The notes beneath the pieces were generated by a model, which worked only from the letters and a program-made list of their open reading frames with translations, did no database searches and was not told the origin of the DNA. The translations under genes and the position numbers were made by a program. From Candidatus Poribacteria bacterium (GTDB taxonomy: Bacteria; Poribacteria; WGA-4E; WGA-3G), in the NCBI GenBank assembly GCA_965205015.1, contig OZ242029.1:839937-903936 (forward strand): a stretch of 64,000 bases of DNA. The letters are read 5' to 3'. This document shows, in pieces, positions 1 to 13,172 of the stretch. Within the stretch, counting starts at the first letter, position 1. Each line of letters starts with the position of its first letter.

Positions 1-1580
1 ATGGCGGCAGTGGGTTCATCAAATACGACGAATTGACTCTGTCGGAAAAGTCCACGCGCAACGGCGAGGCGCAGCCATTCTCCACCGGACACGTCGCGTC
101 CGCCGAATTCGTGTCCGAGCCAAGTGTCAAGTTCTTGTGCGAAAGTAGAACCTGCTCTGTCGAGTGTGTGCCGCATAAAGGTGTCGTCTTGCATACGGTT
201 CGGGTCAGCAAAGCCGACATTATCCCTAACAGGCAGTAGGAACTTCGTGAAGTCCTGAAAGACAGCACTCGTTGTGGGTTTTTCGGAAGCCGTAGCACCT
301 TGCGAAAACATGAGTGTTCCGCTATCTGGAACGTACAAACCGAGCAATATATTTGCGAGTGTTGTCTTTCCAGCACCATTTTTCCCGACGAGTGCGACGG
401 TTTCGCCAGGCACTATTTTCGCGGTAATCTCCTTGAGGGTCTGCGTCGCTGCGCGAGGGTATCGAAATGAGAGATCATTCATGGCGACTGTTATCTCTCC
501 CGCTTCTGCAGCGAGTAGTGGCATCCCTTGTGGTTGCCCCTGGCCTTCCTGATGTTTCTCCGTCGCATCAGAAACACTAAGCTCTTGGGTGGATTGCGTT
601 GTGAACAGCGTCGCAAGATCACGTAAGACACCGCTCTGTTCGGCGAGATTCCCCATAGAGCGCGCCATATATGAGAGAAATCCTTGTAACCCAGCGGCAG
701 CGGCAATTAAACCCGTGAAGGTACCGGCGATTTTCTCAGGGTCGCCGTTATGTGCAACCCGTGCTGCGATGAAAACGATCACACAATATCCGAAGACAGA
801 ACTGAGGTTGGCGAGTGCGTTCCAGGCGGTTTTCCTTTTGAGGGATCCTATTTCCACCGTGGCGAGTTGACGATACGCGTTTTCCCATTTTGAAAGCAAC
901 CAACGTTGAAGTGTAAAGAGGCGGACCTCTGGACTGTTGACACGCTCGTAGAGCCGAGCTGCCCACGCTGTCTGTGTTCGGTTGGGACGTGCTGCCGCTC
1001 GGTCTTGCTCGAGTTCAAGTCTGGCAATAGGTTTCCTTGTGAAGAGAATGATGGAGGAACTGACCAGCAAAGCCGCCATACACCATATATCACTACTGAT
1101 AATAAAGATTGCGCCCAACAGTCCGCAGACACTCGCGACACTATGGATATTATCCACAACACTCTGAAACCAACTGACGACGCGATCACTGAAACCTTGC
1201 GTTGCTCGGCTAAGATTATCGTGAAAGTCAGGGTCGAAAAAATGGAGCAGGGGTGTTTGTCCAGCTTGACGCAGAAGGTCTTGCTGGAAGTGTAGCACCG
1301 CTTTATTGGAGAACCACATCTGTGTTACGCGATTGAAAACATCGGTTAATATTTCTAAGGTCATTAGCACGAGAAAAACACCCATCCATAAAAAGAGTCC
1401 CTCAGCATTTACTAACGCGTTTGTGAATCCGGCGATGATAACCGGCGAAAAACCGCGGTTTCCGGCGTTTATCAAACGGAGCAGAAGTATGACAAAGAGG
1501 GGAAGGGGTGCAATCCGTATAAATTGCCAGATTAAGCGAAGAACTGCGCGTCGAGGTAATGTGTTTGTGTCTCTCATCAT
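1..1580 (-). CDS. ABC transporter ATP-binding/permease protein, type I exporter half-transporter. Partial: C-terminus lies beyond the window start.
   Basis: Not in the ORF track because it runs off the edge. My minus-strand translation (codon phase 0) gives MMRDTNTLPRRAVLRLIWQF..., with Walker A 'GKNGAGKTT' at about 365-420 and ABC signature plus Walker B 'SGGEWLRLAVARG...VVFDEPTAA' at about 20-100. The ATG at 1578-1580 overlaps the upstream gene stop (ATGA). Confidence 0.85.
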   Translation of the reverse strand, partial: MMRDTNTLPRRAVLRLIWQFIRIAPLPLFVILLLRLINAGNRGFSPVIIAGFTNALVNAEGLFLWMGVFLVLMTLEILTDVFNRVTQMWFSNKAVLHFQQDLLRQAGQTPLLHFFDPDFHDNLSRATQGFSDRVVSWFQSVVDNIHSVASVCGLLGAIFIISSDIWCMAALLVSSSIILFTRKPIARLELEQDRAAARPNRTQTAWAARLYERVNSPEVRLFTLQRWLLSKWENAYRQLATVEIGSLKRKTAWNALANLSSVFGYCVIVFIAARVAHNGDPEKIAGTFTGLIAAAAGLQGFLSYMARSMGNLAEQSGVLRDLATLFTTQSTQELSVSDATEKHQEGQGQPQGMPLLAAEAGEITVAMNDLSFRYPRAATQTLKEITAKIVPGETVALVGKNGAGKTTLANILLGLYVPDSGTLMFSQGATASEKPTTSAVFQDFTKFLLPVRDNVGFADPNRMQDDTFMRHTLDRAGSTFAQELDTWLGHEFGGRDVSGGEWLRLAVARGLFRQSQFVVFDEPTAA

Positions 1581-3343
1581 TGATACCACTCACTTTGTGC
1601 TGCGAACATTTCAGCGTATTTTCCATTCCGCTGTAGGAGTTCAGTGGGATTCCCGATTTCTACAATGCGTCCACCATCCAAAACAACCACGCGATCGGCA
1701 AGCCGTGTCGGTCCGAGTCGATGGGCGATGAGCAGGGCAGTTTTACCCTCTACCAATTCAACAAACTGCTGAAAAATTTCCAACTCAGCAAGAGGGTCAA
1801 GGGCTGCCGTGGGTTCGTCAAAAATGACAAATTCGCCACCTTCTTTTATCAGACTCCGAGCGATAGCGACGCGTTGCCATTCACCGCCAGAGAAATCCGC
1901 ACCCCCGAATTCGGGACCTAAAAGCGAACTTAGCGGGAATTTTTCTGCTGGCAATCCGACTTGGGCTAAGGTCGCTTCGGTGTGTGCATCGGCGGCAGTG
2001 GCACCGTCCAAAATCAGGTTCTCGCGTAGGGTGGTCGGATAGCGTGCCGGATGCTGAAACACGACGGTGCAAGCACGCCGGAGGTCTTCAGATGAAATCG
2101 TGGTGGTATCAATACCATCTATCGTGATATTTCCTGCTGTTGGAGAACGCAAACCTGCTAAAATGTGTGCCAAAGTCGTCTTTCCCGCGCCATTTTCACC
2201 GACGACAGCGAGAATTTCGCCCGGACGGATGTGAACGTTAATATCGGAGAGCGCGTCTGTGTCTGCACCCGGGTAACGATACGCGACGCTATGCAAGCGG
2301 ATACCTTCACGCATCGAGTGTGGATAAGGCGTACGCGCTTCGGGAGCGTCTTCATCTTGCTTTTCTTCTAACAGACGGCGAAGGTCTTCTCCGTAGCCAG
2401 CGTGTTGGACAAAACCGATGACGAAATACTGCATCGAGTTCATACCCGCGGTGATATTCCGAAATGCTTCTAACACCAAAGCCGCGAGTCCAGCTTCAAC
2501 CCTTCCCTGTGAAAGCGATGTAACGAGCAGTGCCCCAGCGATGATGGCTACGAAAATAAATACCTGGAAAATACCTTGAGAGGCATTTCGAAAATCGATA
2601 TGCAAGCGTTCCTGAAGATATTGGGCGAGGATCGTCCGCCAGCGTTGGAGAAGGGGTTCGCCGATGGACCATAAACGGATTTCAGCGGCACTGCGCCGTT
2701 CTGTTAGAAGTTGGACGTAGTAATCCGCAAGTCGTTTGTTGCGTGTATTTTCCACCTCAAAGTGGCGCACTCGGGCGCCCATCTGAATTTCAAAAACCCG
2801 CAGCAATATTGCCCCACCGATGATGATCACGGGAATCCAAATCGAAATCAGTCCTAACACAACGGCACTGGTGAACAGGACAGGCGTGTATTCAATAAAG
2901 TTCAAGCCATTTTGCATTAATTGGACAACGCTCGAATCCCCACCAGTAACGACGCGATTGATGAGGTTATGCGATTCCTCGTCATCAAATGCCTCTAATG
3001 GTAATTTGCCTGTCTTTTGCAAAGCATCCCGCTGCAAAGCGAAACCGGCTCTAATGCGGAGTTGCTCGCGTAAAAGTGGGAGGAGTGTTAAGATCGCCTG
3101 CTCTACGAAAAAGAGGAGGCAAAGCGCAGCCAGCCATGGGACAGCACTCCTCATAATATCTGCATCGACGAGGGTATTAACGGTTTCCCGGAGCACAAGC
3201 AGATGGGCTGCCGCAGCACCTGCATTGATGAGGACAAGGGTTATCCACACAGCGGCAATAAAAGGCGAAGCTTTTAACACCTGTCCGAACAACCAGAGTA
3301 GGTCTCGAAATGAAGGGCGCGTTAATTTTTCTTTGTCCCACAT
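1577..3343 (-). CDS. ABC transporter ATP-binding/permease protein (MsbA-like exporter half), probably the heterodimer partner of the downstream gene.
   Basis: 588-aa ORF with an N-terminal TM region, Walker A 'GENGAGKTT', signature 'FSGGEWQRVAIARSL' and Walker B 'VIFDEPTAALD'. Confidence 0.9.
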   Translation of the reverse strand: MWDKEKLTRPSFRDLLWLFGQVLKASPFIAAVWITLVLINAGAAAAHLLVLRETVNTLVDADIMRSAVPWLAALCLLFFVEQAILTLLPLLREQLRIRAGFALQRDALQKTGKLPLEAFDDEESHNLINRVVTGGDSSVVQLMQNGLNFIEYTPVLFTSAVVLGLISIWIPVIIIGGAILLRVFEIQMGARVRHFEVENTRNKRLADYYVQLLTERRSAAEIRLWSIGEPLLQRWRTILAQYLQERLHIDFRNASQGIFQVFIFVAIIAGALLVTSLSQGRVEAGLAALVLEAFRNITAGMNSMQYFVIGFVQHAGYGEDLRRLLEEKQDEDAPEARTPYPHSMREGIRLHSVAYRYPGADTDALSDINVHIRPGEILAVVGENGAGKTTLAHILAGLRSPTAGNITIDGIDTTTISSEDLRRACTVVFQHPARYPTTLRENLILDGATAADAHTEATLAQVGLPAEKFPLSSLLGPEFGGADFSGGEWQRVAIARSLIKEGGEFVIFDEPTAALDPLAELEIFQQFVELVEGKTALLIAHRLGPTRLADRVVVLDGGRIVEIGNPTELLQRNGKYAEMFAAQSEWYQ

Positions 3344-3412
3344 CGTTTTCTGTCTACCTCGGTTAGTCCTAAATTACAATAGCGTGTAGGGAACGCGTTT
3401 TAGCCTTCTATT

Positions 3413-4207
3413 TCATTGTGTTTCTTCCGCACTTAAGTAGTCTAACGGGCTCTCAACGATATAATCCCCCGAATCCTCAAGAAACTGTTGGACGAGGAAA
3501 ACATGTCCAGCACCGATAATCAGTAGAATGCGATCGTCAGCAGATTCGGTGATACGGGTTAAATTCACAAATATTTTGAGATTCCGAGCATACCAAATAT
3601 GGGCAAGCCAATCTGCACCCGGATATTTGTCGTCTAACCCAATACGTGCATCATGTAAGTATGCCCGCTGGCTCGCACGGCTCCATGCAGGCTGATTGAG
3701 GCGGATATACATGTCGATTATCGGTTCATATTCCTCAGGTTCAATCCAGCCTGTCCCGTCCTCATCCTGTGTAACTTTTTCCGGAGATCCGGGATGGGAT
3801 CCAAAGAGGTGCCTCTGATTGTGTTTTTTCGCAAACTCGCTGCGGTTTATCAAATGACCTTTCATGCTTTCAAAGATCGGATCTTGCTTTGGCCAATAAT
3901 CAACGCAATACACTTTTGAATGTCTCACCATTTTCGCCAATCGAAACCCGACTTGATGGATTTCATGGCGTTCAAGTTGAAATTCATCCTTCAGATAGGC
4001 ATTGTATTCCTGCTGAAGATTGGAGTCAAGGTAGTCGACCTCAACAGCTATCTTCGTCGGCTGAAATTGAGCCAGTTGATCAGCAAGTTGTTGAAGTTCG
4101 CGCTGACGTTTAGGCGCGCGCATATCATCTATATTATCTCCATCCCAACCTGCCAAGTGGTGACTCCCGAGAATCATAACTGTAGGTTTCGTCTGATGTT
4201 TCATCAA
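3413..4207 (-). CDS. TraB/GumN/Tiki-superfamily (DUF5694-like) protein, paralog 1. No signal peptide.
   Basis: N-terminal 'ILGSHHL' GxxH motif, 'KRQREL...PTKIAVEVD' with conserved Glu, C-terminal 'LLIIGAGHVFLVQQFLEDSGDYIV' GxGH motif. The 4-nt ATGA overlap with the next gene suggests coupling. Confidence 0.6.
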   Translation of the reverse strand: MMKHQTKPTVMILGSHHLAGWDGDNIDDMRAPKRQRELQQLADQLAQFQPTKIAVEVDYLDSNLQQEYNAYLKDEFQLERHEIHQVGFRLAKMVRHSKVYCVDYWPKQDPIFESMKGHLINRSEFAKKHNQRHLFGSHPGSPEKVTQDEDGTGWIEPEEYEPIIDMYIRLNQPAWSRASQRAYLHDARIGLDDKYPGADWLAHIWYARNLKIFVNLTRITESADDRILLIIGAGHVFLVQQFLEDSGDYIVESPLDYLSAEETQ

Positions 4208-5019
4208 TTAGCATCCTCCATTTTTAAGTATTGCAGCGGACTTTCGACAATGTAATCGCCTGAATCCTCAAGAAACTGTTGGACGAGGAAGACATGCCCA
4301 GCACCGATAATCAGTAGAATACGATCGTCAGCAGATTCGGTGATACGCGTCAGGTTAATGCAGATTTTGAGGTTCCGAGCGTACCAACTATGGGCAACCC
4401 AATTCGCACCCGGATATTGGTCCCCTAATCCAATACGCGCACTGCGTAGATACGCCTGATGATCCGCGAGTCTACCTTCAGGCTCGTTGAGACGTATGTA
4501 CATCTCAATTATAGGTTCGTATTTCTCAGGTTCAATCCAAGTTGTGCCATCTTTGTCCTGAGTGATTTTTCCTTCTATAGGTGGGGGACGTAGGAAATGC
4601 TTCTGATTATGAGTCTCTGCGAACTTATAGCGATCCATCAAATCCCAATCAATCTTACTCTCAGGAAGACGGGGGGACCGTTCCGTCCAAAAATAATCCA
4701 CACAGTGTACCTTCGGATGTCCGATCTGCTTTGCCAATCGAAACGCAATCTGATGGATTTCATGGCGTTCAAGTTGGAAGTTATCCTTCAGATACGCATT
4801 ATACTCCGCTTGCTTTTCAGCGTCCCAACGTGTGTCGGATTCAATGGCTATCTTCGTCGGTTTGAAGCGCGCAAGTTGTTCAACGAGTTGCTGAATCTCG
4901 GCTTGGCGCTTTGGTGTGAGGACATCATCCATTTTTGTATTGTATACATCCGCTCCCCAGTTTGCCAAGTGCGGACTGCCGAGAATCATGATTGTCGGTT
5001 TCGTCTGATGTTTCATCAA
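4204..5019 (-). CDS. TraB/GumN/Tiki-superfamily protein, paralog 2. No signal peptide.
   Basis: Same motif set ('ILGSPHL', 'KIAIESD', 'IIGAGHVFLVQQFL'). C-terminal ~60 aa nearly identical to paralogs 1 and 3. Confidence 0.6.
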   Translation of the reverse strand: MMKHQTKPTIMILGSPHLANWGADVYNTKMDDVLTPKRQAEIQQLVEQLARFKPTKIAIESDTRWDAEKQAEYNAYLKDNFQLERHEIHQIAFRLAKQIGHPKVHCVDYFWTERSPRLPESKIDWDLMDRYKFAETHNQKHFLRPPPIEGKITQDKDGTTWIEPEKYEPIIEMYIRLNEPEGRLADHQAYLRSARIGLGDQYPGANWVAHSWYARNLKICINLTRITESADDRILLIIGAGHVFLVQQFLEDSGDYIVESPLQYLKMEDAN

Positions 5020-5888
5020 TCAGCATCCTCCGCCTTTAGGTATTTGAGTGGATTCTCAACGATGTAATCCCCGGAATCTTCAAGGAATTGTTGGACGAGG
5101 AAGACATGCCCGACACCGATAATCAGCAGAATGCGATCGTCAGCAGATTCGGTGATACGGGTTAAATTTACAAAGATTTTGAGGTTCCGAGCATACCAAA
5201 TATGGGCAAGCCAATCCGCACCCGGATATTTGTCGCCTAACCCAATACGTGCATCATGTAAGTATGCTCGCTGGCTCGCGCGGGTCCTTACGGGCTGATT
5301 GAAGCGTATGTACTTGTCAATTATCGGTTCATATTTCTCAAGTTTTCCTGGATCTGTAGGATCTCCGAAACGGTGATCCTCAGGAGATCCGAGAAGGTAT
5401 TCCTGATTGTGAACTTTTGCAAACTCGCTGCGGTTTATCAAATGCCCTTTAATGCTTTCAAAGATCGGATCTCGTTTGGGCCAATAATCAACACAATACA
5501 TCTTTGAATGTCCGAACTCTTTTGCTAACCTATATCCAATCTGATCTCCCTCATAGGGTCCGAGTGCGTAGGTCCCGTTTAAATAACCTTGATAGCGTTT
5601 GTTTTCAGCGTCGCAACGGCTTGGATCCAACTCAACCGCTATCTTGGTAGGTTTAAATCCTTTGAGGTGTTCAACCACCTGTTCAATCTCGCGTTGGCGT
5701 TTGGTCGCGAGGACATCATCCGAAAAGTGCCAACTGCCAAGAATCATAATCGTCGGTTTTTTCGTCATGTGCGTAGTATCCTCTGTAGACGGGTCTGTCC
5801 GGTCATCACTTGCGACTGTGCCGACCGCAAGTAACACAGCGACGAATAACATTATCAAATAGAACTCGTATTTCACTAAGGCTTTCAT
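5016..5888 (-). CDS. TraB/GumN/Tiki-superfamily protein, paralog 3, with N-terminal signal peptide (secreted/periplasmic).
   Basis: Hydrophobic N-terminus 'MKALVKYEFYLIMLFVAVLLAVGTVAS' followed by 'IMILGSWHF', 'KIAVELD', 'IIGVGHVFLVQQFL'. Confidence 0.6.
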   Translation of the reverse strand: MKALVKYEFYLIMLFVAVLLAVGTVASDDRTDPSTEDTTHMTKKPTIMILGSWHFSDDVLATKRQREIEQVVEHLKGFKPTKIAVELDPSRCDAENKRYQGYLNGTYALGPYEGDQIGYRLAKEFGHSKMYCVDYWPKRDPIFESIKGHLINRSEFAKVHNQEYLLGSPEDHRFGDPTDPGKLEKYEPIIDKYIRFNQPVRTRASQRAYLHDARIGLGDKYPGADWLAHIWYARNLKIFVNLTRITESADDRILLIIGVGHVFLVQQFLEDSGDYIVENPLKYLKAEDAD

Positions 5889-5944
5889 AAAACTTCTCCT
5901 ATCTGTGGTATCGGTAACCCTGCCTGAAAAAAGAAAACAACAGA

Positions 5945-7339
5945 TTAAGGCGTTTCCGCTTTGTTTGCATCCAAGTATTTCAACGGACTTTCAACGATAT
6001 AGTCCCCCGATTCCTCAAGAAACTGCTGAATCAGATACACATGCCCAGCACCGATAATCAGCAGAATGCGATCATCGGTGGACTCCGTGATGCGCGTCAA
6101 ATTCACAAAATTCTTGAGATTATGCGCATACCACCAATGTGCAACCCAATTGGCACCTGGATATTGGTTTTTGAGTCCAATGCGTGCGGTGCGCAGATAT
6201 GATTGATGACCGGTGTACATCTGTGCAGGCTCGTTTATCCGTATGTACATGTCAATTAGGGGTTCATATTCTTCGCGCTCAACCCAGACCGTGCCATCTA
6301 CGTCCGCCCGAACTTTCACCCCGCTTGAGGAAACGCTCCATAAGAGGTGCTCCTGATTATGCGTCTCCGCAAATGTGGCGTAGTCTAATAAACTCTTATC
6401 AATTTCATCATATATCGGCCGGTGCTTTGGCCAATCAGCAACACAATAAAGCTTCGGATGTCCCATCTGTTTGGCTAACCGAAAGCCGAATTGGTCAGGC
6501 AGGCTCCGTGTGAGTTCATAAGTGCCCTCCAAGTAGCTTTGATAGCTTGCGTTAATCTCCGCATCATCCCTTTCGTCTACATAAACGGCTATCTTGGTGG
6601 GACTAAACGCTCTAAGTTGCTGCACCAGTTGTTCCATTTCGCGTTGGCGTTTGGGCGCGAGGACATCATCCATTCTTGTATTGAATACATTGATTCCCGG
6701 ATTTGTGAAGAAGTCACTACCCAGAATCATGACTGTCGCTTTGTCTCGTGTGTCCCCTCTGTTCCATTGTCCTTTCAATTTGTCGCCAAAATCGATGTCC
6801 ACCGCACCGAAATTGCTGAGATTCCCGAGCAATTCCTCAATGCGTTCCGGTGCGATCTCACCGACAATGTTGACAAAGGTGGCTTCTCCAGACCTTTTCG
6901 GGATGATGATAGCGAAAATCCCGTAAACCTTCTCTTCATCAAACAGTAGATTAATCTCTACCGTTTCACCGCGCTCCTCAATTTTGACGAGGACTTCCCA
7001 CTCATCGTTCTTGAGCTTCTCCTTGAAATAGTTAACTAATTTCTTCTCATCAATCGTTGCCCTATCGTAAGTCCGGACATAGATACCGTCTAACATCTGG
7101 ATCAGCTCGGCGACTTCGGGTTGATTGCTCACCGATTTGGTTACCAGACTGATGAGTTTCGAGGTTAAGTTAACCTCGACCTTTGCCTCAAGAGGTTCTG
7201 GGAAATCGAAGAGGATGAGTCCTTTTCTATCAGTCTTGTCCGATTTGTCCTGCTGCGCGACTGCTGAATGCATCAGTGTTAGCGATGCAACCAAAAACAG
7301 CAACGTGAACAGTCGTATAAAGTGCTTTTGCGGTTTCAT
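5945..7339 (-). CDS. Secreted fusion protein: N-terminal DUF4252-like domain (~230 aa) plus C-terminal TraB/GumN/Tiki-like domain.
   Basis: Signal peptide 'MKPQKHFIRLFTLLFLVASLTLMHSAVAQ'. The N-terminal region aligns with the product of 7361..8047 ('YVRTYD/IRAYDG', 'L.N..WE.L.KI', 'FVNIVGEI/FVNIYGEI'). The C-terminal part has 'VMILGSDFF', 'KIAVYVD', 'IIGAGHVYLIQQFL'. Confidence 0.6.
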   Translation of the reverse strand: MKPQKHFIRLFTLLFLVASLTLMHSAVAQQDKSDKTDRKGLILFDFPEPLEAKVEVNLTSKLISLVTKSVSNQPEVAELIQMLDGIYVRTYDRATIDEKKLVNYFKEKLKNDEWEVLVKIEERGETVEINLLFDEEKVYGIFAIIIPKRSGEATFVNIVGEIAPERIEELLGNLSNFGAVDIDFGDKLKGQWNRGDTRDKATVMILGSDFFTNPGINVFNTRMDDVLAPKRQREMEQLVQQLRAFSPTKIAVYVDERDDAEINASYQSYLEGTYELTRSLPDQFGFRLAKQMGHPKLYCVADWPKHRPIYDEIDKSLLDYATFAETHNQEHLLWSVSSSGVKVRADVDGTVWVEREEYEPLIDMYIRINEPAQMYTGHQSYLRTARIGLKNQYPGANWVAHWWYAHNLKNFVNLTRITESTDDRILLIIGAGHVYLIQQFLEESGDYIVESPLKYLDANKAETP

Positions 7340-7360
7340 GGGTTCTACTCCTTATCTATT

Positions 7361-8047
7361 TTAACGATTCGTTGTTGTATTCCCTGATTTCAGGGCATGA
7401 TCCGGTTTCTCGGCGTTGCGCTTTACTTCCCACCCGTGGGACATCGGGACGTTTATCCAATTGCGAACTGTTTCGGAGATCGACTCCCTCGAATTAGATT
7501 CCAGAAGTTGTCCAAATAGAGTGCCGAGTTTCTGAAAGTCGATCTCTCCATAGATGTTCACAAAGCCCGAATTGCCATTATCGGTGAACATAACGAAAAT
7601 ACCGTTCACTACGCCCGGTTTTTCCGAGTAGAGCAGGCTGAGATCGAATGTATCCCTGATTTTGATGAGATGCTCCCACTTCTCATTTGCAAGGATGCTA
7701 CGGTAGTGGTCCACGATCCGGTTGAGGTCTCTCATCTCTCCATCGTAAGCCCGGATAGAGGCACCTTTTAGCATTTCGGCATACGCCGTATATTCCGACA
7801 TATCTATCGATTTATCTCCAGAAAGTTCCGGATGACTTGCGATACCGAAATTGATAAAGAGGCCTAAGAGGCTCTTGTCTAAGGTAATTTCCACCTTTGG
7901 GACAGGGGCATCCGGCAGATTCATTTCTATCTGACCCCGAACTGTTTCTCCTACGTTGCCGTTCTGGGCGTGCCCATTGGTGAAGAAACAGCAAACTGCT
8001 AAAAAGGCTATACCTGCTAAAAGGGCTGTAAGGGTGGATCTTTTCAT
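7361..8047 (-). CDS. Secreted DUF4252-like protein (ECF sigma-associated).
   Basis: The track ORF is 7361..8254. The likely real start is ATG 8045-8047, preceded by 'TAAGGAG', giving 'MKRSTLTALLAGIAFLAVCC' (signal peptide) and leaving a 13-nt gap after the anti-sigma stop. Homologous to the N-domain of 5945..7339. Confidence 0.55.
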   Translation of the reverse strand: MKRSTLTALLAGIAFLAVCCFFTNGHAQNGNVGETVRGQIEMNLPDAPVPKVEITLDKSLLGLFINFGIASHPELSGDKSIDMSEYTAYAEMLKGASIRAYDGEMRDLNRIVDHYRSILANEKWEHLIKIRDTFDLSLLYSEKPGVVNGIFVMFTDNGNSGFVNIYGEIDFQKLGTLFGQLLESNSRESISETVRNWINVPMSHGWEVKRNAEKPDHALKSGNTTTNR

Positions 8048-8060
8048 GCGTTTTTTCTCC

Positions 8061-8723
8061 TTAATATGAACGTTGATCGGTTTTTGTATCCAGAGTGCCG
8101 TGCGGTAATCGGTCAAGACTATCCAGACTCCGATGGATTGCCGATGAAATATTTCTCTTCTGTTTTGACACATGACGGGAGGCTGTTTCAATCTGAACAA
8201 ACGGACGACTTGAAACTTCATCAATCCGCACATCCGGGAGTTTCTCGTTAACAATCGTGCCGGTTCGCTCCACGGCGTAATTCAACTTACTGAGTGCATA
8301 AGCCAAGTCGCGGGAGGCTTGCTGCACTTTCAGATGCTGTTGGTACTGATAGGTCCCGAACAGGACAACTCCGATGAGGCACGCCAACGCGCCTGCGCGA
8401 GCGAGTACCGAAGTTAAATCATCCGAGAACGTAAACAGTTGGCATATCCGATGTAGCCACTTGGGTCCCTTGTTGGGATGCGCGCGAACGTACGCCTCAA
8501 CGGCGTTGAAAATTGCCGGGGATGGCTCTGGTTTCGGAAGTTCGTGTAATGCGCCGCTAATTGCTTCTGCGAAGCGAATTTCCTCTTGACACATTGAACA
8601 GGATGCAACATGTGCCGCTACCGTCGTCGCCGTATTTGCATCCAATTCATCGTCAAGATACGCTTCTAAGGTATCCTGAACTTCCGTACACGTTAAATCT
8701 GGATGGGAAGGAAATTGGTTCAT
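8061..8723 (-). CDS. Anti-sigma factor, zf-HC2 type, single-pass membrane protein.
   Basis: N-terminal 'C..V...L..YLDDELD...HVASCSMCQEE' zinc-finger anti-sigma motif, TM helix 'LARAGALACLIGVVLFGTY', and a 4-nt overlap (ATGA) with the ECF sigma gene. Confidence 0.75.
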   Translation of the reverse strand: MNQFPSHPDLTCTEVQDTLEAYLDDELDANTATTVAAHVASCSMCQEEIRFAEAISGALHELPKPEPSPAIFNAVEAYVRAHPNKGPKWLHRICQLFTFSDDLTSVLARAGALACLIGVVLFGTYQYQQHLKVQQASRDLAYALSKLNYAVERTGTIVNEKLPDVRIDEVSSRPFVQIETASRHVSKQKRNISSAIHRSLDSLDRLPHGTLDTKTDQRSY

Positions 8724-9265
8724 TCGTTATCTCTCCAGTAGGGACGCAGTAACTCCCGCAACCGCTTGCGGGCACGAAATGCTGTTGATTTCACAGTTCC
8801 TTCGGGTTGTTCTAACACCGCTGCGATCTCCTTGAAACTCATGCCGTTCAATTCCCGCATAATTATGACTGACCGCATATCTGGTGGCAATTTTTGAATC
8901 GCACACTGGACCGAGTCTTTGAGTTCTTGTTGGATCACAATCTCATCTGGTGATGGATTCGATCGACCAGAACGCGTGTGCATCAAAGTTTCGAGTTCTG
9001 TTTCGGGATCTGTATCGTCTCCGCCTGTTAAATGCACCTGAAATTTATCTCGCTTTAGCAGATTGAAACAGAGATTCTGCGCACATTTCAGCAACCATGA
9101 GTGTGCAGTCTTCGGACGCAATTTGTTACGGTGTTTCCACGCCGTAATGAACGTCTCCTGTGTTATATCCTCTGCATCTTCCCGATTTCCGAGTAGATAG
9201 AGGGTGTGTTGATAAACCCGAGCCTTGTGTTGATCGACAAGCTCAAGGAATTTATCTTCTGTCAT
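8720..9265 (-). CDS. RNA polymerase sigma-70 family, ECF subfamily sigma factor.
   Basis: 181 aa. Region 2 'DITQETFITAWKHRNKL' and region 4 'MSFKEIAAVLEQPEGTVKSTAFRARKRLRELL' helix-turn-helix. Confidence 0.85.
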   Translation of the reverse strand: MTEDKFLELVDQHKARVYQHTLYLLGNREDAEDITQETFITAWKHRNKLRPKTAHSWLLKCAQNLCFNLLKRDKFQVHLTGGDDTDPETELETLMHTRSGRSNPSPDEIVIQQELKDSVQCAIQKLPPDMRSVIIMRELNGMSFKEIAAVLEQPEGTVKSTAFRARKRLRELLRPYWRDNE

Positions 9266-9507
9266 GTTTCAGCTCCGCGCATTTTGAGGTTGCTGTTACT
9301 ACAAACGAGTTGCAAAAAAGTTGCACTTTTTTAATTTAAGCAATATTAAGAAACAAATCTCAGGTTCTTAGGAAAGGAGGAAGAACAAGAAGGAGGAGGA
9401 ACAGGAAAGGTGGAAGAGTAGGAAGGGTGGAAGAAACATCGTGTCCGCTATCTTCCAAACTTCCATGCTTCCAATCTTCCAAACCAATACGAAAGCGAAA
9501 TCAGATC

Positions 9508-10458
9508 TTATTCCCATTGAAACACGCTACCCAACACACGCATCGGTTCATCGCGGAGCCATCTATATATCTGTGGTGCCTCATCAACACTCACTCGATG
9601 TCGGATGAGGGGTGCAATTTTGACAGACCCCTGACGGAGCAATCGACAGAGATTTTCCAGATCGTCACACGTGAAGTGGCTACACTGAAGGATACTAATT
9701 TCCTTATGTTGCCCGACGTTAAAGGTGTAATTGACATCGAACCGTCCAGCAACTAAGAGCAATCTACCACGGGTTTTGCAAGCCTGGATCATCGGTGTCA
9801 CCATATCTGGAACCCCCGCGAAGTCCATGACGGCATCAAAGGAACCCTCTTGAATTTGAGAATCCCACCCATCGCCACTCGTATTGAGAACCGCCTCTGC
9901 TACGCCGAGTTGGCGGCTCTGTTCCAGTCGAGATTCCTCAATGTCGCAAACTGTGACACGGGCACCCATGGCGTTAGCGATCTGCGCCGCAAACATACCG
10001 ATGCAGCCCTGTCCGACAATCAGGATTTTTTCCCCGATGCGCGGATCAACACGTCGGCAGCAATGCATCGCGACCCCAGAAATGCCGAAGAGGGCAGCCT
10101 CGCCTGGGTCAATGTCTTCTGGCAATTTGAGCAGGAGTCCATCCTCTGGAATCGTGAACCGTTCGACATGGTTCACACTCGCATAGATGAGGTCGCCGAT
10201 CTGAAGCTGCGTTACGTCCGGACCTGTTTCAATAACTCTGCCGACGTTCTGGTATCCGTCGGTGGTCGGCAACCGGTTATCGGAGGCTGAATAGTTACCA
10301 CCGATCAGTTGATTTCGTTCTGTGCCGTTAGTAAGTCCAGTGAAGACGGCTTGACACAGCACTTCGTTTCCGGTAGGCGGTGCTGGCGCTTCCCAATCGG
10401 TGACAACAATTTTTTCGCGCGTTTTATCTGGCAATAATTTAACGACAAGTGCTCTCAC
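9508..10458 (-). CDS. Medium-chain dehydrogenase/reductase (zinc-type alcohol dehydrogenase-like) oxidoreductase.
   Basis: Rossmann 'ILIVGQGCIGMFAAQIANAMGARVTVCDI'. GroES-like N-terminal part. Likely start is GTG at 10456-10458 (MRALVVKLLPD...) rather than the longer track ORF ending at 10602. Confidence 0.65.
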   Translation of the reverse strand: MRALVVKLLPDKTREKIVVTDWEAPAPPTGNEVLCQAVFTGLTNGTERNQLIGGNYSASDNRLPTTDGYQNVGRVIETGPDVTQLQIGDLIYASVNHVERFTIPEDGLLLKLPEDIDPGEAALFGISGVAMHCCRRVDPRIGEKILIVGQGCIGMFAAQIANAMGARVTVCDIEESRLEQSRQLGVAEAVLNTSGDGWDSQIQEGSFDAVMDFAGVPDMVTPMIQACKTRGRLLLVAGRFDVNYTFNVGQHKEISILQCSHFTCDDLENLCRLLRQGSVKIAPLIRHRVSVDEAPQIYRWLRDEPMRVLGSVFQWE

Positions 10459-10587
10459 AATTTTCACCGTTCCTTTAAATAAAAAATTTAATGCGTGACC
10501 TCCGTTTAGACTACCCGAAACACTTAGATGTGTCAAGGATTTTAAGAATTTTTGGCTGCCATCGTGCGCGATTTGTAAAAAAACCTG

Positions 10588-10616
10588 TTGACAGGTCGTC
10601 ACACTTTTGATATAAT
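10588..10616 (+). promoter_or_regulatory. Consensus sigma70-type promoter (TTGACA-17-TATAAT) for the HpcH/HpaI aldolase gene.
   Basis: TTGACA 10588-10593, 17-nt spacer, TATAAT 10611-10616. RBS AAGGAG about 10690 and ATG 10703. Confidence 0.6.
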
Positions 10617-10702
10617 TTTTTAAGATTTTTGCACCAAAAACAGTGGGAAGCGATTGTATCTATTTTTCATTTTTCACGTTACTTTATTAAGGAGAATCCG
10701 CA

Positions 10703-11581
10703 ATGCCGAAACGCGTTAATAAAGCGATTGAATTGTTAGCAGACGACCTGCCTGTCTTCTATACGGGCAGTCACACGGGCGCGAACCTGAACTATGACGC
10801 GGGTCGCGCGATGGCAAAAACTTGGGCAGACTACATCAATGTCGGCATGGAGCATGGGAGCTTCGATCTCGCGGGATTGGATAGTTTCATGCGTGGACTC
10901 GCTGACGGCGGTCCCACCAATAGCGGACACCAAACCCCGGCTATTATTGTTGAATTGCCAGTAGATGGCATCAGCGCAGATGTGATTCGCGCCAACGGTT
11001 GGCAGATGCGGCAACTCCTTGCACGCGGTGTGCACGGCTTGCTGCTGTGTCACGCTGAATCCCCAGAAGCCGTCAAAGCGTTTGTTGAAGCATGCCGTTA
11101 TCCATTCCAGACGATCGGCGTTGGCACACAATTGGATGTCGGAAGACGCGGCTCCGCCGGACAAGGTTCCGCTGCACCGATCTGGGGCATCTCCGTTGAC
11201 AAATACCTGGATGTCGCTGATCCATGGCCCCTGAACCCGGACGGTGAACTGCTCTTGGGTCTCAAATTCGAAAACAAGCGCGCGTTAGCGAACGTCGAGA
11301 TCACGGCACAGGTCCCCGGAATCGCCTTCGCCGAATGGGGTCCGGGTGACATGAGTATGTCATTTGGCTACAAGAATGCACCGAGCCCACGTCCACAGGA
11401 ATTGGAAGATGCCCGGAATCGCGTCTTTGCGGCGTGCAAATCCGCCGGTATCGCATTTTTGGAAAGCACTTCACCCGATACAATTGAGGCGAGCATCGAC
11501 GCGGGTGTCAGGATCACCGGTGGCGGCGAAGAAGCTGCACGCATCGGAAGGGCGTACGCCGGTAGAACAATGCCTGTCTAA
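10703..11581 (+). CDS. HpcH/HpaI aldolase/citrate-lyase family protein (2-keto-3-deoxy acid aldolase).
   Basis: 292 aa. 'VGMEHGSFD' matches the family Glu-His motif. TIM-barrel-like layout. Confidence 0.6.
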   Translation: MPKRVNKAIELLADDLPVFYTGSHTGANLNYDAGRAMAKTWADYINVGMEHGSFDLAGLDSFMRGLADGGPTNSGHQTPAIIVELPVDGISADVIRANGWQMRQLLARGVHGLLLCHAESPEAVKAFVEACRYPFQTIGVGTQLDVGRRGSAGQGSAAPIWGISVDKYLDVADPWPLNPDGELLLGLKFENKRALANVEITAQVPGIAFAEWGPGDMSMSFGYKNAPSPRPQELEDARNRVFAACKSAGIAFLESTSPDTIEASIDAGVRITGGGEEAARIGRAYAGRTMPV

Positions 11582-11606
11582 AACCTACTTGTAAACCAAG
11601 ATCCAA

Positions 11607-11633
11607 AACACCAAGTCTGAAACATGGTAGGGG
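11607..11633. repeat. 27-nt dispersed intergenic repeat, copy 1 (AACACCARGTCTGAAACRTGGTAGGGG).
   Basis: 'aacaccaagtctgaaacatggtagggg' matches 38423-38449 with 2 mismatches. Confidence 0.7.
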
Positions 11634-11645
11634 TGCGGGGATTCA

Positions 11646-11725
11646 GTCTGGGAATAGACTGGATTTCGTCTGGGAATAGACTAAATCCGTTCCTTGTATT
11701 ACATTTCCGTTCCTTGTACTACATT
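11646..11725. repeat. Two pairs of tandem direct repeats upstream of the RraA-like gene.
   Basis: 'gtctgggaatagact' at 11646-11660 and 11668-11682. 'tccgttccttgtaYtacatt' at 11686-11705 and 11706-11725 (19/20 identical). Confidence 0.8.
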
Positions 11726-11808
11726 CCCAACCCCTACAGTAGGGAACTCCATATAAAGGCACGTCAAGTCCTCAACCTACACCACTTAACCGCAAGGAAA
11801 ATTAAAAA

Positions 11809-12543
11809 ATGGCATTAACAGAGCAGGAAATGTTGGCAGAATTGCGCAAATATGATACGCCTTCAATTACAAACGTGGTTGCCACCTATCCGGGGAGTCC
11901 CCATTGCCTTGGACTCTACAACCCGTGGACAGAGAATTGGTATACGGATACAACGATCCGCTGTATGTATCCTGAGCTTGGAGCCATCGCAGGTTATGCG
12001 GTGACGTGCGTCTACAGCGTACCGGATCCGAACTACTCGGAACTCTCCTTTATGGATGTCATCGATGCACTCGGTGCCTCCAAACAACCGACAATCTTCG
12101 CATTTGAGCAGAAGTTCCCGCCTGAGCTCGCCAATAAGGTCGGTTTAGCAGGCGGCAACATGACAGCGGCGATGAAATCAGTCGGCTGCTTAGGTGCCAT
12201 TTCAAACGGACCCTCACGCGATATTGACGAAATCCGTCCAATGGAATTTCAGTATCTGTTAAGCGGCATTACACCCGGACACGGCGCGATGGCGGTTCAG
12301 GCTGTCAACGTCCCCGTCTCAATAGGCGGCATGGATGTCGCGCCCGGCGAAATTATCCACATGGACGAGAACGGCGCGTGCAAGTTCCCAGGCGATCAGT
12401 TGGAGGCGGTCCTGACAAACGTCAAGGCGTTGCTTAAAGAAGAGGGGGATCGGATAGGGAAACTGCTCTCGGGTCCCAAAACAGCGAAACAGGTCCGGGC
12501 AATTTTCAGTGGACACTCTTACGCGGAAGACGAGGAAGAATAG
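11809..12543 (+). CDS. RraA-family protein (4-hydroxy-4-methyl-2-oxoglutarate aldolase / RraA-like fold).
   Basis: 244 aa. 'KVGLAGGNMTAAMKSVGCLGAISNGPSRDIDEI...VSIGGMDVAPGEIIHMDENGACKFPGD' resembles RraA/MenG-like family motifs. Confidence 0.55.
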   Translation: MALTEQEMLAELRKYDTPSITNVVATYPGSPHCLGLYNPWTENWYTDTTIRCMYPELGAIAGYAVTCVYSVPDPNYSELSFMDVIDALGASKQPTIFAFEQKFPPELANKVGLAGGNMTAAMKSVGCLGAISNGPSRDIDEIRPMEFQYLLSGITPGHGAMAVQAVNVPVSIGGMDVAPGEIIHMDENGACKFPGDQLEAVLTNVKALLKEEGDRIGKLLSGPKTAKQVRAIFSGHSYAEDEEE

Positions 12544-12566
12544 CGGTTTTCTTTACGGAGGCACGC

Positions 12567-13172
12567 ATGGCATCCGCTGCAGCACAAACCTCTCTGACAC
12601 CTGAAGAATACCTCGCTTTTGAACGCAAAGCGACGACGAAACATGAATACCTCAACGGACAGATCGTCGCAATGTCCGGCGCAAGTCGCGAGCATAATCT
12701 CATCGCTGGCAACATGTTTAATGGGCTTTACACCCAATTGATAGATGGCGCGTGTGAAACTTACATCAGCGAAATGCGCGTGAAAAATCATCAAACACAC
12801 TCCTATACATATCCAGATATCGTTGTTGTCTGTGATGAACCGCGCTTTGAGGATGATGTTTTCGATACGTTGCTTAATCCGATTGTGCTTATTGAAGTGC
12901 TTTCGCCATCTACCGAGGCGTATGATAGAGGCGAGAAATTCGCACACTATCGGCAAATTACTTCTTTGCAAGAATACGTCCTTGTTTCACAGGATCGGAT
13001 GCGTGTGGAGCACTATCTTCGGCAAGGGACCCAGTGGCTCCTCACTGAATTTTGTGGACTTCAGGAAGTGCTGTCCCTCGTTTCAATTGGCTGTGAACTC
13101 CGTTTGTCGGATATTTATAGACGCATCACATTTTCTGAGGAGTCCACCCCTTCAACAGAAGTCGGGGAGTAA
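12567..13172 (+). CDS. Uma2-family (DUF820, PD-(D/E)XK-like) putative endonuclease, copy 1.
   Basis: 'TPEEYLAFERKATTKHEYLNGQIVAMSGASREHNLIAGNM' is a typical Uma2 N-terminal signature. Confidence 0.7.
   Translation: MASAAAQTSLTPEEYLAFERKATTKHEYLNGQIVAMSGASREHNLIAGNMFNGLYTQLIDGACETYISEMRVKNHQTHSYTYPDIVVVCDEPRFEDDVFDTLLNPIVLIEVLSPSTEAYDRGEKFAHYRQITSLQEYVLVSQDRMRVEHYLRQGTQWLLTEFCGLQEVLSLVSIGCELRLSDIYRRITFSEESTPSTEVGE

Follow-up and report, generated by a model that had tools for sequence, protein, structure and literature searches.

What an ECF sigma factor may control when several predicted hydrolases and an exporter are encoded behind it is the question raised by a nine-gene cluster of Candidatus Poribacteria, an uncultivated sponge-symbiont lineage, found in a 64-kb window (the whole stretch of DNA that was analysed). 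A sequence-only reading had proposed a module for processing and exporting a peptide or protein. All nine genes were recovered as ORFs, co-directional on the minus strand, in the order ECF sigma factor, zf-HC2 anti-sigma factor, DUF4252 protein, DUF4252::DUF5694 fusion, three DUF5694 paralogs and two ABC exporter halves, and Pfam HMM searches bore out every domain call, including DUF4252 in both the stand-alone protein and the fusion. The genes were separated by gaps of 13, 21, 56 and 69 nt and otherwise overlapped. Of four ATGA overlaps read earlier, those at 8720-8723 (sigma/anti-sigma) and 1577-1580 (the two ABC genes) stood, whereas the junctions at 5016-5019 and 4204-4207 were TTGATG, in which either the TGA stop and the ATG overlap by 1 nt or a TTG start gives a 4-nt overlap. 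No terminator-like site was present on the coding (minus) strand in any intergenic gap of the cluster, and the count of such sites was not above the shuffled expectation. With such small gaps and overlaps, a single operon is plausible, as had been suggested.

The first gene (8720..9265) encoded an ECF (group IV) sigma-70 factor of 181 aa (Pfam Sigma70_r2 E 1.5e-14, Sigma70_r4_2 E 1.6e-18), which reached 91.2 bits against TIGR02937 (sigma70-ECF, cut-off 42.9). Its best NCBIfam matches were SigW models, at 113 bits versus an equivalog cut-off of 209, and the sigma_PG0214 model gave 105 bits, below its cut-off of 130. The second product (8061..8723, 220 aa; zf-HC2 32.3 bits versus cut-off 22.2) was a single-pass ZAS-type (zinc-finger) anti-sigma factor, with HxxxCxxC in its cytoplasmic N-domain (HVASCSMC in the translation), one transmembrane segment at residues 103-121 by hydropathy and about 100 aa outside the cytoplasm.

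A putative auto-regulated ECF promoter, TGCAAC-N16-TGTAGTA, was located on the minus strand at 9297..9325, ending 31 nt before the start codon of the sigma gene; it was exact and the sole good match in the window. In other Poribacteria the same motif was kept ahead of the sigma gene in loci of Type A, B and C, and we infer from position and conservation that the sigma factor recognises it. A search over 75 related loci gave 97 matches at ≤1 mismatch, all on the coding strand, many of which were orthologous and thus not independent. In relatives the motif also preceded 11 extra DUF5694 genes, and in locus L003 a CBM9/DUF5916 gene; the other matches lay mostly before genes without identification or inside over-extended sigma ORF calls. 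In two cases the promoter had come as part of a duplicated segment, made up of promoter, leader and the first ~38 codons of a sigma gene, in which the ATG had become ATA. Such promoter gain before DUF5694 genes points to them as output of the regulon.

Two secreted DUF4252 proteins followed. The stand-alone one (7361..8047, 228 aa; PF14060 31.9 bits versus cut-off 23.9) had a hydrophobic N-terminal segment at residues 5-23, and its ATG at 8047 was preceded by an AAGGAG Shine-Dalgarno sequence. The other (5945..7339, 464 aa) joined a signal-like N-terminal segment (hydropathy), a Pfam DUF4252 domain at residues 55-170 and a DUF5694 domain at residues 259-456 (E 2e-41). Both domains were spanned by just one 50%-identity cluster among the best 150 from 1.84 billion representatives, and the structure model of the full-length fusion was poor (pLDDT 50).

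Three free DUF5694 paralogs, matching Pfam DUF5694 with E from 7e-42 to 5e-46, were encoded next. The 290-aa product of 5016..5888 (PF18950 E 6.8e-42) carried an N-terminal signal or anchor segment, hydrophobic at residues 9-27. No hydrophobic N-terminal segment was detected by hydropathy in the products of 4204..5016 (5019 if the start is TTG; 270 aa, PF18950 E 1.5e-44, predicted cytoplasmic) and 3413..4204 (4207 if TTG; 263 aa, the copy modelled in 3D), in agreement with the earlier count of one paralog with a signal peptide and two without; the start of 4204..5016 abuts the upstream stop, so a leader has no room. Membership of Pfam TraB (PF01963), also expected earlier, was reached by no window protein. 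The family match was DUF5694, which is a separate Pfam family of the TIKI superfamily (Tiki/TraB/PrgY/GumN/ChaN/erythromycin-esterase). The DUF5694 window proteins had no sequence match to any solved structure, and neither a mention of DUF5694 nor a characterised member was found in the literature searched. In the same literature DUF5694 was neither linked to an ECF sigma factor nor fused to DUF4252.

The metalloprotease-like motif GxxH...E...GxxH, previously ascribed to these proteins as a group, was found in the three free paralogs, whose catalytic set (HEEH) was intact, and was absent from the fusion. His, Glu, Glu and His were invariant family-wide (alignment A4; 83 representatives, 30-45% identity) and matched the 2His/2Glu set of RRSP, where this set is essential; PMT, which lacks it, is inactive (PMC6254334). 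In the fusion of the window three of the four invariant residues were replaced, His-1 by F210, Glu-1 by Y253 and Glu-2 by L280, with H433 kept (alignments A1 and A3). A residue census gave HEEH for 139 free copies and FYLH, FYYH, LYSH or FHYH for 26 fusions, so that HEEH occurred in none of the 26 and three of the four catalytic residues were lost in every one, by the same three substitutions in most. Since these residues are absent, we see in the fusion a candidate pseudoenzyme with a sensing or regulatory role; just as likely, its dead domain inhibits the live enzymes, scaffolds them or dimerises with them. In sister Type B loci the DUF4252 N-module was instead fused to a CBM9-Omp85 barrel encoded beside sigma and anti-sigma genes, a pattern of module swapping in which DUF4252 would be a constant transmitter with an exchangeable input domain.

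The core of sigma factor, anti-sigma factor, DUF4252 protein (in some loci), DUF4252::DUF5694 fusion and one to six DUF5694 copies was conserved in 22 species-representative Poribacteria genomes and three metagenome contigs; the neighbourhood survey proposed earlier thus shows an arrangement recurring far more than by chance. Four sampled lineages outside Poribacteria had DUF5694 genes without an adjacent sigma or DUF4252 gene; in a deltaproteobacterial locus an ECF sigma gene lay ~5 kb away, and in the sampled Bacteroidota locus the DUF5694 gene was solitary. Twelve further operons had the form sigma-DUF5694-DUF5694 without an anti-sigma gene. In 10 of these a second, independently inactivated copy (HQEL, LQEL or HQER; YEEH plus HQEL in L060) stood beside an intact one. 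L061 and L072 have an LQEL copy next to one with SHEGH, and an additional YEEH copy was present in the Type A locus L026. Through these operons, this type of sigma factor would be tied a second time to a DUF5694 pair of one live and one dead copy.

The triad of sigma factor, anti-sigma factor and DUF4252 had been taken for a recurring neighbourhood, and this held. Bacteroidota show the same order with a membrane anti-sigma factor, for example in Porphyromonas gingivalis (PG0214-PG0216 and PG0985-PG0987), where the PG0214-PG0218 and PG0985-PG0987 operons are co-induced as units, the triad by H2O2, and PG0985-87 is iron-responsive. In contrast, DUF5694 and ABC exporters are missing from the annotation of those operons, where some genes are "hypothetical", and in Poribacteria the module is extended by a further DUF4252 protein that carries a dead hydrolase, by one to six live hydrolases and often by exporters. 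We tentatively regard the locus as a Poribacteria-specific elaboration of the ECF sigma/ZAS anti-sigma/DUF4252 module, whose output may be Tiki-superfamily (DUF5694) hydrolases, often with efflux transporters alongside.

In the proposal of ECF-controlled processing and export, a peptide or protein matured by DUF5694 proteases would leave through the ABC heterodimer encoded by the last two genes. These encoded half-transporters of 588 aa (1577..3343; TMD and NBD, ABC_tran E 1.8e-29, ABC_membrane 22.2 bits, below cut-off 28; PDB matches of ABCB1 type) and of 526 visible codons, the C-terminus being cut by the window edge (1..1580; ABC_tran E 1.1e-21). The pair begins 69 nt downstream of the DUF5694 genes with no terminator between and is adjacent in ~9 orthologous loci; proteases occur in the superfamily (Tiki, RRSP), some graspetide loci have a Tiki/TraB-family peptidase as their predicted maturase (PMC8939145), and the ABC proteins were weakly similar to bacteriocin and T1SS exporters in NCBIfam. 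However, the gaps of the cluster contain neither a small ORF nor space for a precursor-peptide gene, no C39 peptidase or other N-terminal domain was found in either ABC protein (Pfam, NCBIfam), the NCBIfam matches were all generic exporter models far below cut-offs, and no MFP or OMP partner was visible. The pair was missing in L002, L003, L012, L035 and L036, fragmented in L001 and L004, and separated from the core by two ABC-2 permease genes in L017 and others, while the sigma-DUF5694 core stayed; judging from gene content, it is dispensable. The surroundings of the orthologous loci are rich in transporter genes (ABC-2 permeases, a MacB-like permease, further exporters), in favour of the mechanism preferred below. 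DUF5694 copies without signal peptide also occur in loci without the pair. With the fused domain dead as well, processing and export is quite unlikely. Haem or cofactor handling, with DUF5694 as a ChaN-like haem binder, the ABC pair as a CydDC-like haem/thiol exporter and an iron- or redox-responsive sigma factor with its ZAS anti-sigma, is very improbable: Cofac_haem_bdg matched two relatives below threshold, CydC/CydD models matched the ABC proteins at 1e-48 to 1e-51 and PG0985-87 responds to iron, but the invariant 2His/2Glu set points to an Ere/RRSP-like hydrolase over a binder, the CydC/D scores were far under cut-offs and no better than those of MsbA or T1SS models, and nearby haem-uptake genes were absent.

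The remaining explanations concern signalling itself. The earlier alternative, action on the anti-sigma/DUF4252 pathway, came closer for the dead fused copy but not for the others. In one reading of this kind the live secreted copy would be a site-1 protease on the anti-sigma tail or DUF4252, like PrsW or DegS, with the dead copy tethering or inhibiting it. The physical fusion to DUF4252, the known protease activity of the superfamily and the operons without a conventional anti-sigma gene, most with an inactivated and an intact copy, are in its favour. Yet one to six copies per operon, with others elsewhere under the same motif, are typical of output genes; about half of the intact copies lack a signal peptide, the wrong membrane side for site-1 cleavage, and CBM9/DUF5916 surface modules are attached to some of the live copies, so this explanation is unlikely. 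It is also unlikely that the cluster is a generic envelope-stress regulon acting through anti-sigma and DUF4252 as in Bacteroidota, with DUF5694 and ABC genes as cargo or neighbours and the dead domain as remnant or scaffold. There the triad works without DUF5694 under H2O2 induction, ABC linkage varies among loci, and related MAGs can keep synteny without function. Against it, the dead domain had 81% mean identity across species over the 26 fusions, with recurrent substitutions and no truncated case, inactivation arose a second time independently in the sigma-linked pairs, and the DUF4252 N-module also occurs in front of a different C-terminal module.

A dead paralog as sensor has precedents. 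In the BlaR1/MecR1-BlaZ and UhpC-UhpT circuits the induced effector has a catalytically dead or slow paralog, which serves as the sensor; likewise, the cluster carries a conserved inactivated effector copy on a signalling module, encoded with the live effectors that it would induce. The likeness is one of logic, with no homology, and an ECF anti-sigma route replaces the zinc-protease or two-component relay. FecA-FecR-FecI consists of a TonB-dependent transducer with an STN signalling domain, the FecR anti-sigma factor and the sigma factor FecI. It shares the ECF sigma and single-pass anti-sigma factors, and Type B loci add an outer-membrane barrel with an N-terminal periplasmic module (DUF4252). 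Unlike FecA, this barrel is Omp85-like with CBM9, DUF4252 is unrelated to STN, and the anti-sigma factor is ZAS-type; in the window a dead hydrolase domain takes the place of the barrel. In Bacillus subtilis the SigW regulon, with transporters among its genes, serves detoxification and resistance to antimicrobials. SigW-RsiW also has a single-pass ZAS anti-sigma factor, and TGCAAC-N16-TGTAGTA resembles the SigW motif TGAAAC-N16-CGTA, whereas the sigma score stays below the SigW cut-off, no PrsW gene was found, and the SigW system lacks DUF4252 and DUF5694.

The preferred mechanism, proposed with less than even confidence, is an ECF response under its own control, in which hydrolases of the periplasm and cytoplasm are induced together with efflux and the DUF4252::pseudo-hydrolase is the sensor or regulator. 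Its first two steps draw on sequence evidence: the sigma factor would transcribe its own nine-gene operon from TGCAAC-N16-TGTAGTA and, in relatives, the extra DUF5694 genes and, where checked, the CBM9/DUF5916 outer-membrane protein gene behind the same motif; at rest it would be held by the cytoplasmic zinc-finger domain of the anti-sigma factor. The other four steps we infer. By hydropathy the anti-sigma tail, DUF4252, the fusion and one live paralog are all outside the cytoplasm, where DUF4252 could be a periplasmic transmitter or adaptor touching the tail. The dead DUF5694 domain may bind the substrate of the live paralogs without hydrolysis and so be a receptor, and ligand binding would relieve the anti-sigma inhibition. 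The live hydrolases, one secreted or anchored and two cytoplasmic, would then destroy the compound, an ester or a peptide, and the heterodimeric ABC exporter might clear it or its products. The dead hydrolase fused to DUF4252 thus suggests a testable way for this signalling module to sense its trigger.

The nine co-directional ORFs that the sequence-only reading had seen on the minus strand at 1-9265 were present as claimed, with small corrections only. An ECF-type sigma factor gene (8720-9265, Sigma70_r2 and r4_2 in Pfam) was followed on the same strand by genes for a zf-HC2 anti-sigma factor (8061-8723, 32.3 bits against a Pfam cut-off of 22.2), a DUF4252 protein (7361-8047, PF14060, 31.9 bits against 23.9), a fusion of DUF4252 (residues 55-170) and DUF5694 (residues 259-456, Pfam E 2e-41) at 5945-7339, three DUF5694 paralogs (5016-5888, 4204-5019 and 3413-4207; Pfam E 7e-42 to 5e-46) and two ABC exporter halves with ABC_tran domains (1577-3343 and <1-1580), the last gene passing the window edge. 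Adjacent genes were 13-69 nt apart or overlapping, and good Shine-Dalgarno sequences stood before the gene starts. Terminator-like sites on the coding strand were found in none of the cluster gaps and were not enriched. Two of the four junctions that had been read as ATGA overlaps were true ATGA, while the other two were TTGATG. The four DUF5694 genes, tandem duplicates of one another, were 72-84% identical at the nucleotide level over 300-nt blocks.

Among alternative sigma factors none form a larger group than the ECF factors, and for most ECF groups we know of no input signal. The window sigma factor (181 aa) had PF04542 and PF08281 as its sole real matches, giving the regions 2 and 4 and the size (about 180-200 aa) of an ECF factor, and TIGR02937 gave it 91.2 bits, the cut-off being 42.9. 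Directly 3' of it lay the zf-HC2 gene, overlapping the sigma stop by ATGA as expected of an adjacent downstream anti-sigma gene, and co-transcription is predicted. The anti-sigma translation contained the ZAS motif HxxxCxxC as HVASCSMC, and hydropathy placed one TM helix at residues 103-121. By hydropathy the DUF4252 protein, the fusion and the 5016-5888 product have signal-like segments at their N-termini, which the remaining two DUF5694 paralogs lack. The sigma/anti-sigma/DUF4252 triad, taken earlier for a recurring uncharacterised neighbourhood, is indeed already known as an uncharacterised operon type; to our knowledge it is common in Bacteroidota, oral and gut species included, with no mechanism attached. 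Literature searches returned nothing on Poribacteria together with ECF sigma factors, and nothing mechanistic on PG0214 together with anti-sigma factors.

All four DUF5694 copies of the window belonged to PF18950, with 142.7 to 157.8 bits against a cut-off of 27.5. The kinship of these paralogs with TraB/GumN/Tiki proteins held at the superfamily level but not as membership of the Pfam family TraB_PrgY_gumN (PF01963), which no window protein matched at E<=0.1. Among 83 diverse DUF5694 representatives, PF01963 matched 24 (best 3e-4) and the ChaN family two, all sub-threshold. The traB model TIGR00261 stayed at 15.5 bits, with its cut-off at 178. The fold was that of TIKI/TraB/ChaN/Ere proteins, alpha/beta with a parallel beta-sheet core; Foldseek against PDB with a good paralog model gave nothing significant, searches of PDB sequences with the profiles A2 and A4 gave noise only, and a literature search found no publication that mentions DUF5694. 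His, Glu, Glu, Asn, Gly and His were invariant across the 83 representatives (30-45% identity). The H...E...E...H set corresponded to H15, E58, E85 and H225 in the numbering of A4, and to H16, E55, E81 and H234 within GxxH contexts in a window paralog; the free copies read GSHH/GSPH/GSWH ... E ... E ... GAGH/GVGH, the 2His-2Glu pattern of the superfamily. In RRSP each single mutation of the 2His/2Glu set abolishes activity, and PMT, which is without that set, is inactive (PMC6254334). Because the DUF5694 set mirrors that of RRSP, its residues are read as catalytic. The sub-threshold TraB and ChaN matches and the invariant set thus place DUF5694 in the Tiki/TraB/Ere superfamily, as a distant branch that is probably hydrolytic and lies outside Pfam TraB itself.

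DUF5694 comprised about 1,000-2,500 representative clusters, and its diverse representatives came from Acidobacteriota, Bacteroidota, Chloroflexota, WOR-3, Acetothermia and one deltaproteobacterium. The genome scan patterns were so specific that they reached Poribacteria only, and other phyla were sampled with a profile built from diverse representatives and in four genomic contexts; in these four contexts the DUF5694 genes were solitary, and none adjoined a sigma or DUF4252 gene. Some non-poribacterial DUF5694 proteins (P0193, P0173, P0182 and P0154) carried extra N- or C-terminal extensions of ~130-190 residues, that of P0193 being glyoxalase/bleomycin-resistance-like by eye, and P0154 had two tandem DUF5694 domains. 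On a Bacteroidota contig the DUF5694 gene adjoined beta-lactamase-family and alpha/beta-hydrolase genes. Such extensions and neighbours are weakly consistent with a small-molecule hydrolase role. By analogy, both Ere-type ester hydrolysis and Tiki/RRSP-type proteolysis could be the activity, each having a precedent, and a live DUF5694 fused to CBM9/DUF5916 in a related locus (L034) hints at glycan-associated substrates.

A scan of species-representative genomes gave 196 DUF5694-like stretches, from which 72 loci were kept, all in Poribacteria MAGs except one labelled Nitrosopumilus (L071, likely an annotation or binning artefact) and a few labelled only 'uncultured bacterium'. Homologs of the fusion with 77-91% identity were from named Candidatus Poribacteria, which are sponge symbionts, and related contigs kept the upstream synteny of ADH_zinc_N, HpcH, RraA and TyrRS. 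Layouts mapped by phmmer fell into three recurring types. Type A, that of the window, had sigma, anti-sigma, an optional DUF4252 gene, the DUF4252::DUF5694 fusion and then one to six DUF5694 genes, and was found in 22 species genomes and three metagenome contigs; its ABC pair was adjacent in about nine, behind two ABC-2 permease genes in about eight, fragmented in two and absent in five to six. Type B had sigma, anti-sigma, DUF4252, a DUF4252::CBM9::Omp85-barrel gene and then free DUF5694. In Type C a sigma gene (177-185 aa, same promoter type) overlapped a DUF5694 gene without signal peptide, one or two more followed, and no anti-sigma gene was present (L030 7844-10822; also L038, L052, L054, L059, L060, L061, L062, L065, L072, L074 and L075).

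Some other features were observed around these loci. A 201-aa ORF at window 12567-13172 (+), between RraA and TyrRS, stood where the related locus L003 has a Uma2-family gene (PF05685) and was missing in L001 and L002, a variable insertion amid conserved synteny. A protein of ~575 aa fused an ECF-type sigma (Sigma70_r2 and r4_2) to three DNA polymerase III beta-clamp domains (L002 16852-18582; L003 12717-14444; many 'SIG' ORFs of ~565-577 aa in L011-L072); this unusual architecture recurred near the clusters in many Poribacteria genomes, where sigma-containing ORFs of ~400 aa and ~990 aa were also common. A database protein named 'Nisin transport ATP-binding protein NisT [Geodia barretti]' (P0062), combining DUF5694 and ABC_tran, is likewise a likely artefact: two merged genes, probably on symbiont DNA that had entered a sponge assembly.

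The GxxH...E...GxxH motif claimed for the cluster stood for the three free paralogs, all HEEH (His-1, Glu-1, Glu-2, His-2), but not for the fusion, which read FYLH at these positions and had lost three of the four residues. G13, H16, E55, G231 and H234 were invariant in 61 free Poribacteria copies, and in 34 fusion orthologs the places of H16 and E55 were taken by F210 and Y253, both conserved to 90% or more. Among all copies of 230 aa or longer, HEEH was counted in 139 free copies and in none of the 26 fusions, which had FYLH (21), FYYH (3), LYSH or FHYH. The dead DUF5694 domain nevertheless kept a mean identity of 81% among fusions, and judging from these sequences it would be a conserved pseudoenzyme. 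The 14 other full-length copies without HEEH were all free: 13 lay in Type C operons, and one (YEEH) in the Type A locus L026. An inactivated copy (HQEL, LQEL, HQER, or YEEH plus HQEL) stood beside an intact one in 10 of the 12 Type C operons; L061 and L072 had only an LQEL copy beside a SHEGH copy. HQEL, LQEL and HQER lost a different subset (Glu-1 and His-2), which points to an inactivation independent of that in the fusion.

Both DUF4252 assignments of the sequence-only reading, the 7361-8047 product and the N-domain of 5945-7339, passed the gathering score of PF14060, the latter with 51.2 bits against 23.9; the PDB held no solved relative of DUF4252 by sequence. No exact database match of the window fusion protein was found, and 90%-identical relatives were used instead. 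Only one 50%-identity cluster spanned both domains among the best 150 profile matches (1.84 billion cluster representatives), so the fusion appears to be an invention of Poribacteria. Its DUF4252 N-module was nearly identical to that of the Type B CBM9-Omp85 protein, the pattern that a constant transmitter should show if its input domains can be exchanged. Large envelope proteins of two kinds, DUF4252::CBM9_1::Omp85-like barrel (~830 aa) and live DUF5694::CBM9_1::DUF5916 (~940 aa), were encoded at L048 6539-9046, L011 5058-7592, L034 10804-13623 and L058 9956-12808.

Within 60 nt upstream of the sigma gene, TGCAAC-N16-TGTAGTA was located at 9297-9325, the only good match in the window. Its sequence and spacing were conserved before orthologous and paralogous sigma genes in loci of all three types. 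It is a putative auto-regulated ECF promoter, for which AAC within the -35 element and a conserved -10 element would be characteristic. The window motif resembles TGAAAC-N16-CGTA, the consensus for SigW of B. subtilis, and SigW models were the top NCBIfam matches of the window sigma factor. Allowing one mismatch at most, 97 occurrences were found in 75 loci, all on the coding strand, 49 of them before sigma genes and 11 before additional DUF5694 genes. The motif also preceded a stand-alone CBM9/DUF5916 gene in L003, a promoter variant that recurs in L002, L004, L008 and L023; for most remaining occurrences the downstream gene was not identified, or they lay inside over-extended sigma ORF calls. 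In L040 and L027 an extra DUF5694 gene lay behind a duplicated block of promoter, leader and ~38 initial sigma codons, in which ATA had replaced ATG; here a partial duplication has clearly led to promoter capture. Of the in-silico evidence at hand, the motif distribution and this capture argue best that DUF5694 genes would be an output of the window sigma factor. Apparent sigma::DUF5694 fusions in L009, L027 and L040 were rejected, being untranslated sigma 5' remnants of ~38 codons, each with ATA for ATG (L040 10675-10990; L027 9590-9900; L009 16830-17160), before ordinary secreted DUF5694 genes. The stretch 9326-9512 (-), which separates the sigma promoter from the ADH_zinc_N-like gene (9508-10602), carried GGAAG repeats followed by a ~70-nt CT-rich tract of CTTCC repeats; the two together fold as a hairpin that is long but imperfect (MFE -41.3 kcal/mol, z -1.96). 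Part of this tract was common to the close relatives L001, L009 and L022, and it might terminate or insulate the upstream gene, or else be a repeat element.

A module for peptide or protein processing and export was first proposed for the cluster. The two proteins of its ABC pair were type IV (ABCB-like) half-transporters, a type with an N-terminal six-helix TMD and an NBD with Walker A/B (ABC_tran E 1.8e-29 and 1.1e-21), their best PDB matches being ABCB1-type. ABC_membrane reached 22.2 bits, below the cut-off of 28, and four to five hydrophobic regions were resolved at the hydropathy threshold used. The proposal is weakened and is not supported as it stood: the precursor gene was absent, the ABC proteins started directly with TM helices and had neither C39 nor any other peptidase domain, the pair was dispensable in orthologous loci, and copies without signal peptide persisted where it was missing. 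NCBIfam T1SS and bacteriocin models scored far below their cut-offs. A RiPP or bacteriocin locus was rejected, with no precursor, C39 domain or modification enzymes, and so was a T1SS, with no MFP or OMP gene within window 1-13000. No sign of a defence or toxin-immunity system emerged. The downstream parts of orthologous clusters were rich in export systems (L017 12726-15743; L005 14613-19359; L002 18669-21311), among them two ABC-2 permeases with DUF3526 that separate the ABC pair from the DUF5694 genes, a third ABCB-type exporter and a MacB-like permease (MacB_PCD and FtsX).

The live DUF5694 copies could possibly act as signalling proteases, a role that fits poorly with their copy-number variation, with the cytoplasmic copies and with the extra copies under the same promoter. 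If the DUF5694 genes were plain cargo with no role in sensing, neither the conserved dead domain nor the second, independent dead lineage would be explained. A ChaN-like haem role is unlikely because the catalytic set is invariant.

The most economical model that we infer, in its contacts, ligand and hydrolytic chemistry as in every mechanistic step, is an auto-regulated ECF response, in which DUF4252::pseudo-DUF5694 would sense the substrate that the induced hydrolases act on, or modulate how it is sensed. What the data show directly is the anatomy, the conservation, the residue losses and the distribution of the motif. The model fits the predicted extracytoplasmic location, the dead but conserved domain, the live paralogs in two compartments and the frequent linkage to efflux-type transporters. 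Its sensing logic would be analogous to that of the BlaR1/BlaZ and UhpC/UhpT circuits. A further step, rather doubtful at present, takes DUF4252 as the periplasmic transmitter of a new kind of ECF input route and its C-terminal partner as the receptor. The receptor in the window cluster would then be a pseudoenzyme derived from the hydrolases that sigma induces, and in sister loci it would be the CBM9-Omp85 outer-membrane barrel. In Type C, the second, independently inactivated cytoplasmic DUF5694 may be an unconventional anti-sigma factor or a co-sensor.

The component families are already known, and the cluster is not a new category of system; new are the lineage-wide coupling to Tiki-superfamily hydrolases, the DUF4252::pseudoenzyme fusion, the exchangeable C-terminal modules and the shared promoter. 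Poribacteria are uncultivated, which is the main limit, and they offer a natural experiment in which the same DUF4252 module is joined to a conserved dead hydrolase or to an outer-membrane barrel. With live hydrolase copies downstream and others behind the sigma promoter motif, the contacts of the anti-sigma tail, the identity of the promoter and the residues to mutate can be tested, so that an unexplained ECF input and two domains with no assigned function become testable questions, and DUF5694 gains its first functional context. If DUF4252 is indeed the transmitter and its partner the receptor, a first function would be given both to DUF5694 and to DUF4252, a domain found widely in ECF operons of Bacteroidota, and ECF signalling would gain a 'dead-effector sensor' mechanism. 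For the biology of sponge symbionts the cluster points to an expanded, regulated repertoire of hydrolases and efflux, with 196 DUF5694 stretches in the Poribacteria species genomes, which could deal with metabolites or matrix components of the holobiont.
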